Positions 5,737-6,784 of a DNA stretch of 23,053 nucleotides are shown piece after piece. The position numbers and the translations under genes were made by a program. The notes beneath the pieces are model-generated. The model saw nothing but the letters and a program-made list of their open reading frames with translations, had not been told where the DNA came from and searched no databases. The stretch is from IMG/VR virus record IMGVR_UViG_2537562020_000011, positions 1 to 23,053 of that record. The stretch is one strand, 5' to 3'. Origin of the DNA: a virus. Taxonomy: Duplodnaviria > Heunggongvirae > Uroviricota > Caudoviricetes. Each line of letters starts with the position of its first letter. The stretch's first letter is position 1.

Positions 5737-5926
5737 ACTGATTCCTCGCGGTGCTGTTTCCCCTTAACGCCGGGGTGGCGGAACAAAAACCTGCTGCATA
5801 GTTATTAAAGTTGAACCCTGCCGTCATGTTCTTACGCCTCGGGCTGGCTACTTACCCCCTGACCACTGCCTGGTAACTCGAAGTATTGCCCTGCATTCTG
5901 TGGGGCGGGGTGGGTTGGTATGTTGT

Positions 5927-5942
5927 TAAGGTAACAAGTGTT
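5927..5942. promoter_or_regulatory. Operator-like palindrome GGTAAC-aagt-GTTACC (putative OL site)
   Basis: Perfect inverted half-sites. The same GTAAC-N4-GTTAC architecture recurs at 6743-6756 on the other side of the repressor gene. Confidence 0.45.
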
Positions 5943-5987
5943 ACCTTTCGAGTCAATGCAATGTTGCAAAAAGTACATTTGAGGGCG

Positions 5988-6012
5988 TGAAAAACCCGCA
6001 ATGAATGCGGGT
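5988..6012 (-). terminator. Rho-independent terminator downstream of the repressor gene
   Basis: On the minus strand: stem cccgca/tgcggg followed by a T-run (plus strand gaaaaacccgcaatgaatgcgggtt), directly after the repressor stop at 6019. Confidence 0.55.
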
Positions 6013-6018
6013 TATGAC

Positions 6019-6735
6019 TCAGTCTAAGTATTGATGTATTTGTGAAACTTTACCTTTAATGGTGTAACCACCATTCAGTTCGATGGGTTTGTAAAGCGGA
6101 TTCAGTGACAACAGATAGATGTTTGGTCCGTCAATCGCAACTTTTTTTAGTGTTACGTTTGGCGTTCCTTCCAATTGGATTAAGATTATTTTTCCCACCA
6201 GTTCTCTAATGTTACTTGAGCATGGTGTGATCAGCACGGTAGATCCGTCGGGGATGGTTGGGAGGCCGTTAGAGTTTGTCATCGCATCTCCCTCAACATG
6301 CAATAAAAAAGAGTTTTCAGCGGTTTTTGTCATGACATCAACCCAATTCTTAATACCAGGAATCTCGGTTACTGGACAACTCATATCCCAATAACCAGCC
6401 TGTTCCCACGTTAAAACGGGCAACCGGGCGATGTTGTCACTAATGTAAAGGTACTGATTCAGACGCAGATCATCGGTTTTATCGTGACCGTCCTTTCCAT
6501 AAAGAATCCATTCAGGAGATTTGGAAAGCAATTTTGACAGTAGATGCAAATTCTCACCGTCAGGTTTTGAAGAGCCATTTTCCCATTTTGTTACGGATAC
6601 ACGAGATATGCCGATTGCTTTCGCAACCTGCTGTTGGGTTAATCCAACGTCTTTTCGACGATTCCGAATACGTTCGCTGATAGTGTTTTTCATGTAACCA
6701 ATGTTACTACCAAGTGATGTTGCTATGGTTGACAT
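6019..6735 (-). CDS. Prophage repressor, cI-like (N-terminal XRE-type HTH plus C-terminal S24/LexA-like domain)
   Basis: HTH region LTQQQVAKAIGISRVSVTKWENG. C-terminal domain aligns by eye to lambda cI/LexA (VEGDAM...VTLKKV). Start placed at the ATG at 6735 (MSTIATS...) because the track start at 6792 is TTG and overlaps the divergent cro-like gene. Alternative start is the ATG at 6693. Confidence 0.8.
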   Translation of the reverse strand: MSTIATSLGSNIGYMKNTISERIRNRRKDVGLTQQQVAKAIGISRVSVTKWENGSSKPDGENLHLLSKLLSKSPEWILYGKDGHDKTDDLRLNQYLYISDNIARLPVLTWEQAGYWDMSCPVTEIPGIKNWVDVMTKTAENSFLLHVEGDAMTNSNGLPTIPDGSTVLITPCSSNIRELVGKIILIQLEGTPNVTLKKVAIDGPNIYLLSLNPLYKPIELNGGYTIKGKVSQIHQYLD

Positions 6736-6784
6736 TGTAATGTAACTATTGTTACCCTCCTGCTCGAAATAACAGGAGAGTTTT
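6729..6784. promoter_or_regulatory. Divergent promoter/operator region between repressor and cro-like gene (putative OR/PR/PRM)
   Basis: Contains TTGACA (6729-6734), the palindromes ACATTgtAATGT and GTAACtattGTTAC (6743-6756), the inverted repeat CTCCTG-N11-CAGGAG (6756-6778) and the AGGAG RBS of the cro-like gene. Confidence 0.5.

Follow-up and report, generated by a model that had tools for sequence, protein, structure and literature searches.

The 23,053-base stretch of viral DNA analyzed here (the window), from an E. coli prophage, carries a minus-strand repressor gene divergent from a plus-strand cro gene (Table 1). The repressor has an S24 domain at its C terminus and, at its N terminus, a helix-turn-helix (HTH) domain with the recognition helix ISRVSVTKWENG. 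The nearest solved structure to the repressor is the N-terminal domain of P22 c2, with an ungapped match (E = 2.6e-13), and the Cro recognition helix, ISHVAVVRWK, is similar to that of the repressor. The cro gene has a Shine-Dalgarno sequence, AGGAG, at 6774-6778, and the YdaT-family gene that follows it is likely the CII analogue of the switch, a role that YdaT has in prophage CP-933P (PMC8630535). The S24 fold of the repressor is still recognized by Pfam, and the Ala-Gly site (EQAG) and the lysine (VTLKKV) are retained; the nucleophile position is Ala135 (GDAM; codon GCG at 6283-6285), where relatives have G(D/E)SM. The repressor thus falls outside the self-cleaving LexA/S24 class, with its Ser-Lys dyad (GDSM) and Ala-Gly site, and from its sequence we regard its competence for self-cleavage as doubtful.

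Table 1. Genes, operator sites, and candidate transcription signals of the immunity region (window coordinates)
Feature	Position	Strand	Remarks
PL -10 hexamer TACCTT (predicted)	5928-5933	-	17-bp spacer; shares its first three bases with the end of OL1
OL1 operator GTAAC-AAGT-GTTAC	5931-5944		Exact match; between PL -35 and -10
PL -35 hexamer TTGACT (predicted)	5951-5956	-	Nearly all relatives keep TTGAC, 6 nt upstream of OL1
Probable OL2, degenerate, GTACT-TTTT-GCAAC (minus strand)	5963-5976		Just upstream of PL -35; 6/10 half-site bases
Intrinsic terminator of repressor transcript, AACCCGCA-UUCAU-UGCGGGUU then U-run	5988-6014	-	RNA fold
Repressor gene, cI/c2 type, 224 aa	6019-6693	-	Pfam HTH_3 2e-16 and Peptidase_S24 9.4e-17
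OR3 operator GTAAC-CAAT-GTTAC, minus strand GTAACATTGGTTAC	6694-6707		Exact match; adjoins repressor ATG
PRM -10 TAACAT (predicted)	6701-6706	-	Inside OR3
Probable OR2, degenerate, TCAAC-CATA-GCAAC (minus strand)	6719-6732		Fixed register; 6/10 half-site bases
PR -35 hexamer TTGACA (predicted)	6729-6734	+	Read from sequence; TTGCTA in relatives, same register
OR1 operator GTAAC-TATT-GTTAC	6742-6755		Exact match; in PR spacer, overlaps predicted -10 TACCCT
PR -10 TACCCT (predicted)	6753-6758	+	Overlaps OR1
cro, 71 aa, P22_Cro family	6785-7000	+	Pfam P22_Cro 2.9e-16
YdaT-family gene, 141 aa	6997-7422	+	Pfam YdaT_toxin 7.4e-10

A first-pass annotation had proposed that matching GTAAC-N4-GTTAC palindromes on the two sides of the repressor gene are OL and OR operators defining the immunity specificity of the prophage, unless the motif were equally common elsewhere. 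It is not. Exact matches number three in the window (mean 0.00 and maximum 0 in 100 shuffles), all three fall inside the immunity region as OL1, OR3, and OR1, and there is no further exact copy elsewhere in the 23,053 bases. Eight more sites have one or two mismatches, which is background level, as the chance expectation with up to two mismatches is 5.65 matches in the window, exact ones counted. The pairing of 5930-5947 with 6739-6756 also emerges from an independent search for repeats. In 115 related viral contigs there are 360 copies in 108 kb of immunity segments versus 2 in 1.03 Mb elsewhere, a density about 1,700 times that of the other phage DNA in the same contigs, and the motif is thus confined to the immunity region across the window and these contigs. 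Every computational test agrees with the operator proposal, with binding of the sites being something that we infer. The four sequences quoted in the annotation all exist, with small errors of coordinate or spacing: the main palindromes are 1 to 3 nt off, with the OL palindrome GGTAACaagtGTTACC at 5930-5945 rather than 5927-5942, and the OR palindrome GTAACtattGTTAC at 6742-6755 rather than 6743-6756. The repressor/cro gap does contain the motif, although as part of a set of three OR sites (two perfect and one degenerate) rather than a single one. The third exact copy, GTAACCAATGTTAC at 6694-6707, had been overlooked, and the OL side gains a probable degenerate OL2.

Relatives were gathered through a homologous-protein search, the contigs encoding the proteins found, and a phage collection. 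In an ungapped, ATG-anchored alignment, the arrangement [OR1]-9-[OR2]-11-[OR3]ATG is kept in 15 GTAAC-type relatives with 42 to 99% amino acid identity, representing about eight genera (those named are Pantoea, Pectobacterium, Klebsiella, Yersinia, Edwardsiella, Kosakonia, Hamiltonella, Arsenophonus, and Salmonella), and the same layout is present in about 115 of 120 IMG/VR viral contigs with the OR3-ATG junction. OR3 directly precedes the ATG in the 15 relatives and in at least 120 viral contigs, although for the IMG/VR set, which was collected with OR3 as the search key, this conservation is a circular result. OR1 played no part in selecting loci; it lies 48 bp from OR3 in all relatives, with 1.8 to 1.98 bits per half-site position. 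Half-sites stay constant in the relatives while the central and inter-site spacers drift, the inter-site spacers having 0.38 to 0.99 bits. An operator adjoining the ATG is not a rule for the whole superfamily: a leader with a Shine-Dalgarno sequence is present in vB_EcoM-689R6, which is CTAAG-type, and in a Morganella phage. About 13% of complete E. coli genomes (701 of 5,426) carry the sub-type of the window itself, and relatives of the repressor family occur in Klebsiella, Salmonella, Yersinia, Pantoea, Pectobacterium, and insect symbionts. A scan of genome contigs with the repressor protein gave only two matches, both to unrelated Firmicutes/Mollicutes HTH proteins.

The position of OR3 raises the question as to where the repressor begins. 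PGAP annotation places the start at ATG 6735, giving a 238-aa protein with the N-terminal peptide MSTIATSLGSNIGY, in which case 6694-6707 would be coding sequence conserved for the protein and OR would have a single site. An in-frame open reading frame does run from ATG 6735, and several database homologues are also called at 235 to 240 aa, but Met15 of this long form, encoded by ATG 6693, is invariant, and most homologues (218 to 221 aa) begin there. Upstream of Met15, only the palindrome-encoded residues ('NIGY') are conserved, even where relatives have no upstream open reading frame, and no segment varies more than the 11 nt that precede the OR3 palindrome (0.38 bits). Moreover, ATG 6735 is the complement of the candidate PR -35 (TTGACAT), and P22 has its OR3 at the same place, with a PRM transcript that starts 4 nt before the ATG. 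We therefore consider the longer protein very unlikely and correct the annotated start from 6735 to 6693.

With the start at 6693, the repressor-cro gap holds several related, partly symmetric sites, centered at -7.5, -32.5, and -55.5 relative to the repressor ATG and in register with candidate PR and PRM hexamers. In all relatives OR2 is separated from OR1 by 9 nt and from OR3 by 11 nt, and its cro-proximal end provides the TTG of the PR -35. The proposed -10 hexamers are weak (TACCCT for PR and TACCTT for PL), and a consensus promoter scan of the window reported no PR, PL, or PRM. From the candidate hexamers, transcripts would start at about 6693-6695 (PRM, minus strand), 6764-6766 (PR, plus strand), and 5920-5922 (PL, minus strand). 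A P22-like PR register, with the -35 at the OR3-proximal edge of OR2, was also considered, and a matching TTGCTA-18-AACTAT with an upstream TG is present in the window; PR was kept as TTGACA-18-TACCCT because that alternative is not conserved in the 219-aa relatives. Because OR3 is as perfect as OR1, the order in which the sites of a lambda-like switch would be filled is not readable from the sequence.

The two other palindromes that the first-pass annotation had placed in the OR region are present but are not supported as regulatory elements. The second-type palindrome, ACATTgtAATGT at 6732-6743, is not conserved as an element: in place of ACATTGTAATGT, L001, a relative with 83% identity, has ACATTATCATGT, and the commonest variant has ACATTGTTATGT. 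Part of ACATTGTAATGT coincides with the candidate PR -35 (TTGACA) and the edge of OR1. The inverted repeat CTCCTG/CAGGAG lies at 6757-6762 and 6773-6778 with a gap of 10 nt rather than 11, and most relatives have CTTCTG, CTTCTA, or CTCCCG as the left arm without a compensatory change on the right. We reject it as a regulatory hairpin or site. The right arm is the Shine-Dalgarno sequence of cro, and the left arm is upstream of the predicted PR start.

On the other side of the repressor gene, a second operator set lies past its 3' end and overlaps a putative leftward promoter, an arrangement conserved in the relatives. The transcript of the repressor gene is predicted to end at an intrinsic terminator (-13.9 kcal/mol, z = -3.29; 1 of 200 shuffles folds as well), which is conserved in L001. 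The OL1 palindrome widens to 20 bp, AAGGTAACAAGTGTTACCTT, at 5928-5947, and its spacer differs among relatives (AAGT in the window, AGAA in L001, and AAGA or AGAG in IMG/VR variants) while the half-sites are constant. All of the relatives with an OL place a site at the same position relative to TTGAC, and their PL -10 is TACATT in the same register; the overlap of OL1 with the -10 is the same as at P22 PL. The OL2-equivalent in the relatives is strong, for example GTAAC-AAAA-AGTAC or GTAAC-TAAA-GGTAC, 29 to 35 bp from OL1, and by its position and by this analogy we tentatively assign 5963-5976 as OL2 in the window. A structured RNA of the put or nut kind was also considered for the minus-strand PL leader at 5737-5925, but this leader folds no better than shuffled sequences (z = +1.46); there is no Rfam match in this leader, and the repeat search gave no inverted copy matching it downstream of PR.

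The degeneracy of OR2 and OL2, each of which matches just 6 of 10 half-site bases, raises the possibility that only the three perfect palindromes are operators, and that the switch has a two-site OR and a one-site OL, with 'OR2' and 'OL2' being the context of promoter -35 hexamers. The PR -35 puts its own constraint on the left half of OR2. The distance from OL2 to OL1 varies between 29 and 35 bp across relatives, and a 6/10 match is not significant at so loose a register (a binomial estimate gives about 0.02 per position). However, the register of OR2 is exactly fixed in every relative, and its information content of 1.35 to 1.5 bits/position exceeds the 0.4 to 1.0 of the spacers. OR2 in the relatives reads CAAAC-AAAA-GTTAC, and most GTAAC-type relatives have GTTAC as the repressor-proximal half; in three phages with GTAGG-type half-sites this half is CCTAC in two (mEp390 and vB_EcoM-720R4) and CCAAC in the third (YeP1). 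P22, moreover, has a functional OR2 at the same place. A switch with three OR sites is thus the reading that we prefer, and the reduced set is a less probable alternative, though one to be taken seriously.

The GTAGG-type phages (mEp390, YeP1-3, vB_EcoM-720R4, and some Stx2c phages) provide a second type of evidence. Their repressors are homologous to that of the window (38 to 42% amino acid identity), and the OR1-9-OR2-11-OR3-ATG geometry and the OL layout are identical, but in mEp390, YeP1, and vB_EcoM-720R4 the half-sites are GTAGG/CCTAC and the repressor helix is VxRVTVTGWE versus VSRVSVTKWE in the window, a change of Lys to Gly and Ser to Thr. As both half-site and helix differ from those of the window, these phages presumably constitute a separate immunity group. 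A Morganella phage and P22, with half-sites ending in AAG, have Gln at the helix position of the window Lys, and the crystal structure of the P22 repressor shows Gln37 in contact with the inner base pair of the half-site (PMC5175364). The recognition helices of both repressor and Cro change in relatives using another half-site, and it is from this covariation that specific binding of the sites by the two proteins is supported here. The Cro covariation is imperfect, with vB_EcoM-720R4 Cro having Glu, not Gly, before the Trp, and the Morganella repressor has Ala where others have Arg, yet half-site position 1 is still G. These phages form a natural series for change of specificity in P22-type repressors and Cro proteins, in which the residue preceding the conserved Trp is Lys, Gly, or Gln where the half-sites end in AAC, AGG, or AAG, respectively.

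With binding by the prophage proteins deduced in this way, a host regulator or another phage protein could in principle occupy the palindromes, or they could be chance or structural repeats. Zero copies are expected by chance, and the motif travels with the repressor gene across about eight genera while being essentially absent from the remaining phage genome; a host factor is disfavored because the half-site changes together with the repressor recognition helix. We regard these explanations as extremely improbable. It is highly likely, in our judgment, that the GTAAC-N4-GTTAC palindromes serve as operators in a lysis/lysogeny switch of the P22 type, bound by the repressor and by Cro.

A plausible mode of action is that each 14-bp core, which the flanks probably extend to about 18 bp, is bound by a dimer of the cI/c2-like repressor, with each HTH reading one 5-bp half-site and the central 4 bp remaining uncontacted; the P22 repressor similarly makes no contact with the central 4 bp of its operators (PMC4267663). 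Repressor at OL1, between TTGACT and TACCTT of PL, would block leftward early transcription of ydfC, dicF, and dicB, and at OR1 it would block transcription of cro, the ydaT-like gene, and the replication genes from PR; OR2, which overlaps the PR -35, would probably be filled cooperatively from OR1. The PRM transcript would start 0 to 2 nt before the AUG and be effectively leaderless. Because OR3 holds the predicted PRM -10 and the proposed PRM start is at or just before the AUG, occupancy of OR3 by excess repressor or Cro would shut off repressor synthesis. Cro, having a related recognition helix, probably binds the same sites.

The combination of the S24 Ser-to-Ala replacement, equally perfect OR1 and OR3 sites (over PR and over PRM, respectively), and a vestigial OR2 suggests a more speculative interpretation, in which this common E. 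coli sub-type is an SOS-blind, 'locked' P22-type switch that acts mainly as a tightly self-limiting silencer of the dicB/dicF and replication operons rather than as an inducible switch, and in which one helix position sets the immunity group (Lys for ...AAC, Gly for ...AGG, and Gln for ...AAG). The repressor would then not be removable by RecA-stimulated self-cleavage because of the lost nucleophile. We advance this only tentatively, and think it rather less likely than not to be correct in full.

Literature searches found no published description of GTAAC-N4-GTTAC or of the operators of ZF40 and related phages, and no published binding or transcript data for the repressor. The sites described here define an immunity specificity, GTAAC-N4-G(T/G)TAC, for a repressor family for which these searches found no operator data, and they provide a rule for predicting homo-immune prophages from sequence alone. 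The conceptual gain is modest because the logic of the switch is textbook; judging from the sequences, this is very probably a known, P22-style type of switch with a recognition sequence for which we found no published description.

The window shares with lambda the divergent cI/cro genes, three OR sites, an OL past the cI terminator, and a maintenance transcript that starts at or next to the AUG (as proposed here). The lambda operators are 17 bp and unrelated in sequence, OR3 is centered about 19 bp upstream of the AUG in lambda versus about 7.5 bp in the window, and lambda Cro belongs to a different fold family. Phage 434 has a 14-bp operator core with an uncontacted center, as suggested for the window, and a homologous N-terminal domain (E = 4.5e-6), but its half-site is ACAA with 6 central bp and its repressor is a more distant homologue. 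In the cryptic prophage CP-933P of E. coli O157:H7, a leaderless repressor gene faces away from the genes for YdaS (Cro-like) and YdaT (CII-like), both PRM and PR are overlapped by palindromic operators of 18 bp, and the switch has a further OL/PL (PMC8630535). Its repressor, PaaR2, has no relation to cI/S24, its half-sites follow the consensus GTTTAGTAA, and the number of palindromes reported is four.

The closest resemblance in architecture is to P22. The operators of P22 (and of phage 21) share the plan of the window, with two half-sites around 4 central bp; the P22 OR is also tripartite, with 48 bp from OR1 to OR3, and adjoins the c2 ATG; and OL1 is in the PL spacer in both. The annotated P22 PRM -10, TAAGAT, is inside OR3 in the same operator register as TAACAT of the window, and its near-leaderless mRNA corresponds to that proposed here. 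The site centers differ modestly (-9.5, -33.5, and -57.5 relative to the ATG in P22, spaced 24 and 24 bp, versus 23 and 25 bp in the window), the predicted PR is about 22 bp nearer to cro than that of P22, which puts OR1 in the PR spacer and not over -10/+1, OR2 is far more degenerate, and, unlike in P22, the S24 nucleophile Ser is replaced by Ala. The window thus has the P22-type arrangement of three OR sites over 48 bp, with OR3 at the ATG and the PRM -10 within OR3, from a predicted PRM start, but it does not belong to the P22/21 immunity group (ATTTAAG-N4-CTTAAAT with helix SNVAISQWE): P22 and DE3(imm21) have TTAAG together with SNVAISQWE, whereas the window has GTAAC together with SRVSVTKWE. 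Comparison of the sequences therefore indicates that the architecture is that of P22 and the specificity is different.

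The segment at 5900-7450 of the window is a lambdoid immunity region, in which the repressor gene faces, across the putative operators, cro and then a YdaT-family gene. YdaT of the CP-933P prophage has been demonstrated to be a CII analogue (PMC8630535). To the left lie ydfC, DicF RNA, and dicB, and to the right the replication genes; a Qin-like left arm (ydfC, dicF, dicB, DUF1482) is joined here to a cI-type, not a DicA-type, immunity module. A prophage adjoining ompW in a strain of E. coli O6:H16 matches the window at 100% identity. Of 5,426 complete E. coli genomes, 701 contain the window's 901-bp immunity segment, for the most part at 95 to 99% identity. 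Repressor homologues recovered by protein search are graded (89, 88, 70, 66, and 52% identity, the lowest being 41%), and the phage collection yielded no repressor with more than 43.5% identity to that of the window. The O-like replication gene contains a 20-nt, 90% palindrome (TCAACGGTTAACCCATCAAA / TTTGATGGATCAACCGTTGA) together with a pair of 13-nt direct repeats spaced 21 bp apart; in lambda and P22 the origin lies within the initiator gene, and these elements may be the origin of replication.

Features of the immunity region and its surroundings (window coordinates)
Feature	Position	Strand	Details
DicF sRNA	4524-4575	minus	Rfam, above gathering score
PL leader	5737-5925	minus	
Inferred PL	5951-5956 and 5928-5933		TTGACT, 17-bp spacer, TACCTT
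OL1	5931-5944		exact motif copy
OL2 candidate	5963-5976		6/10 half-site bases match
Repressor gene	6019-6693	minus	224 aa; HTH_3 (2e-16), Peptidase_S24 (9.4e-17)
OR3	6694-6707		exact motif copy
PRM -10 candidate	6701-6706	minus	TAACAT
OR2	6719-6732	plus-strand coordinates	TCAAC-CATA-GCAAC; probable, degenerate middle site
Inferred PR	6729-6734 and 6753-6758		TTGACA, 18-bp spacer, TACCCT
OR1	6742-6755		exact motif copy
cro	6785-7000	plus	71 aa, P22_Cro family
YdaT-family gene	6997-7422		follows cro
O-like replication gene	7446-8393		
Palindrome and repeats	7815-7855 and 7890-7923		within O-like gene
One-mismatch motif copy	9556-9569		within DUF1627 gene
sok antitoxin RNA	11430-11605	plus	Rfam, above gathering score; adjoins hokD
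tRNA gene	16695-16767	plus	Rfam, above gathering score
tRNA gene	16868-16941	plus	Rfam, above gathering score

The window has exactly three copies of the motif GTAAC-N4-GTTAC; 100 dinucleotide-preserving shuffles yielded none. The palindromes reported in the first-pass annotation are present, although placed 1 to 3 nt out of position; the two copies flanking the repressor gene are both real, but the third exact copy, at OR3, had been overlooked. An independent repeat finder paired 5930-5947 with 6739-6756. The window has no exact copy outside the immunity region. If up to two mismatches are tolerated, eight more sites appear; chance predicts a total of 5.65 matches, and these one- or two-mismatch copies are background. 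The one-mismatch copy GTAAATTTCGTTAC in the DUF1627 gene is identical in L001, an 83%-identical relative (L001 6465-6478), and is probably retained for its coding role.

The operator layout is widely shared. L001 keeps the half-sites of all three palindromes and has AGAA in place of AAGT at the centre of OL1, with flanking sequence also altered. Ungapped alignment of DNA from 15 relatives in eight genera, anchored at the repressor ATG, showed three 14-bp sites in every one, separated by 9 and 11 nt, with the last abutting the ATG. In the relatives, the ATG-proximal OR3 is GTAAC-ATTG-GTTAC; the distal OR1 reads GTAAC-AAAA-GGTAC (in the window's sub-type, GTAAC-AATA-GTTAC), and the middle OR2 is degenerate, CAAAC-AAAA-GTTAC in most. 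Scanning IMG/VR with the 17-mer GTAACATTGGTTACATG matched at least 120 loci, and about 115 of the 120 listed have the full OR architecture, with 71 distinct upstream sequences. In the contigs listed, the motif (GGTAC allowed) has 360 copies in 108 kb of immunity segments versus two in the remaining 1.03 Mb, and the enrichment there is still more than a thousand-fold with the 115 search-key copies excluded. Across 76 distinct OR sequences, information content is 1.98 and 1.80 bits per position in the OR1 half-sites, 1.50 and 1.35 in those of OR2, 0.99 in the 9-nt spacer, 0.38 in the 11-nt spacer, and 0.72 upstream of OR1; OR3, having served as the search key, gives no independent values.

Two secondary palindromes had also been proposed. 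The supposed second type, ACATTGTAATGT (6732-6743), is disrupted in L001 and in the commonest variant. In CTCCTG/CAGGAG, whose gap is N10 and not N11, the left arm is polymorphic and lies upstream of the inferred PR start, and the invariant right arm is the cro Shine-Dalgarno. Both were dismissed as functional elements.

The repressor start annotated by RefSeq/PGAP (238 aa; 6733-6735, minus strand) is probably 14 codons too far upstream. We place it at ATG 6693 rather than 6735 because, upstream of an invariant Met, only NIGY, encoded by the palindrome GTAACATTGGTTAC, is conserved, and because most homologues (218 to 221 aa) begin at that Met. The ATG at 6735 is the complement of TTGACAT, the PR -35, and the 14-codon extension would cross OR3 and OR2.

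PR and PL were assigned because they parallel each other and their counterparts in relatives; a strict consensus promoter scan of the window recovered neither. In both, the operator sits in the spacer and overlaps the -10. In the annotated P22 genome, the 66-bp OR1-3 block lies directly against the c2 start codon and OR3 contains the PRM -10 (TAAGAT); PRM transcription begins 4 nt ahead of the ATG. Site centres relative to the ATG are -9.5, -33.5, and -57.5 in P22 and -7.5, -32.5, and -55.5 in the window, whose TAACAT occupies the same operator register as the P22 PRM -10. This hexamer is completed by the conserved AT that opens the OR3 centre; the OR1 and OL centres differ from it and are more variable. 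No Shine-Dalgarno precedes the repressor ATG in the window, and together with the TAACAT register this suggests a PRM transcript that is leaderless or has a 2-nt leader, with OR3 occupancy expected to shut PRM off. In P22, OR2-bound repressor activates PRM. The PR register differs, the window's being ~22 bp away from that of P22.

On the OL side, relatives have, 3' of the repressor terminator, TTGAC, 6 nt, and then OL1, whose last three bases open a TACATT or TACCTT -10, with OL2 29 to 35 bp further upstream. The window's repressor terminator has an RNA fold z of -3.29. Many IMG/VR repressor loci of the 219-aa type have a third OL-like site (e.g., GTACCCGTAGTTAC) past the PL start point and ~32 bp downstream from OL1; the window's sub-type has none. 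The PL leader (~190 nt from the inferred start to ydfC) is 87 to 97% identical in phages with other immunity modules, with a mosaic boundary near 5928; its structure is not unusual (z = +1.46), it has no Rfam match, and no N-like gene follows PL.

Phages mEp390, YeP1, and vB_EcoM-720R4, whose repressors are 38 to 42% identical to the window's, have identical geometry with GTAGG-N4-CCTAC, also at the OR2 half-site and OL. In these phages the repressor recognition helix is V(N/S)RVTVTGWE, versus VSRVSVTKWE in the window. Gln occupies the Lys/Gly position in a Morganella phage (GTAAG half-site) and in P22 and 21 (TTAAG). At the corresponding position of Cro, GTAAC-type phages have Arg, mEp390 and YeP1 have Gly, and P22 and the Morganella phage have Gln; this correlation is imperfect because vB_EcoM-720R4 Cro has Glu. 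Among solved structures the closest is that of the P22 c2 N-terminal domain (E = 2.6e-13, ungapped), in which Gln37 aligns with Lys36 of the window repressor. The P22 complex has no contacts to the central four base pairs (PMC4267663); in it, Val33 packs on the TTAA thymine methyls, and Gln37 extends to the half-site's inner base pair (PMC5175364). A conserved Val with a shared TAA core, and a variable residue with variable inner bases, would fit these contacts.

The window repressor has GDAM in place of the S24 GDSM, with Ala135 (codon GCG, 6283-6285) for the nucleophile Ser, and retains the Ala-Gly cleavage site and the Lys. GDAM is present in 38 of 39 window-type (224-aa) IMG/VR repressors and a 70%-identical Salmonella homologue; Ser is kept in the close variants L001 and P0003 and all 218- to 223-aa relatives. 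In LexA and lambda cI, Ser-to-Ala at this position abolishes cleavage. The substitution suggests that the repressor is non-self-cleaving and SOS-blind and, if the same chemistry applies, that a widespread prophage is not inducible through RecA-stimulated self-cleavage.

Full-text literature searches turned up no account of this operator, nor any of the switches in ZF40, AH07, or related phages. The new elements are the operator specificity, as predicted from sequence, how widely the family extends, and the revised repressor gene start; the architecture matches P22 and 21, and the logic follows lambda, 434, and CP-933P.
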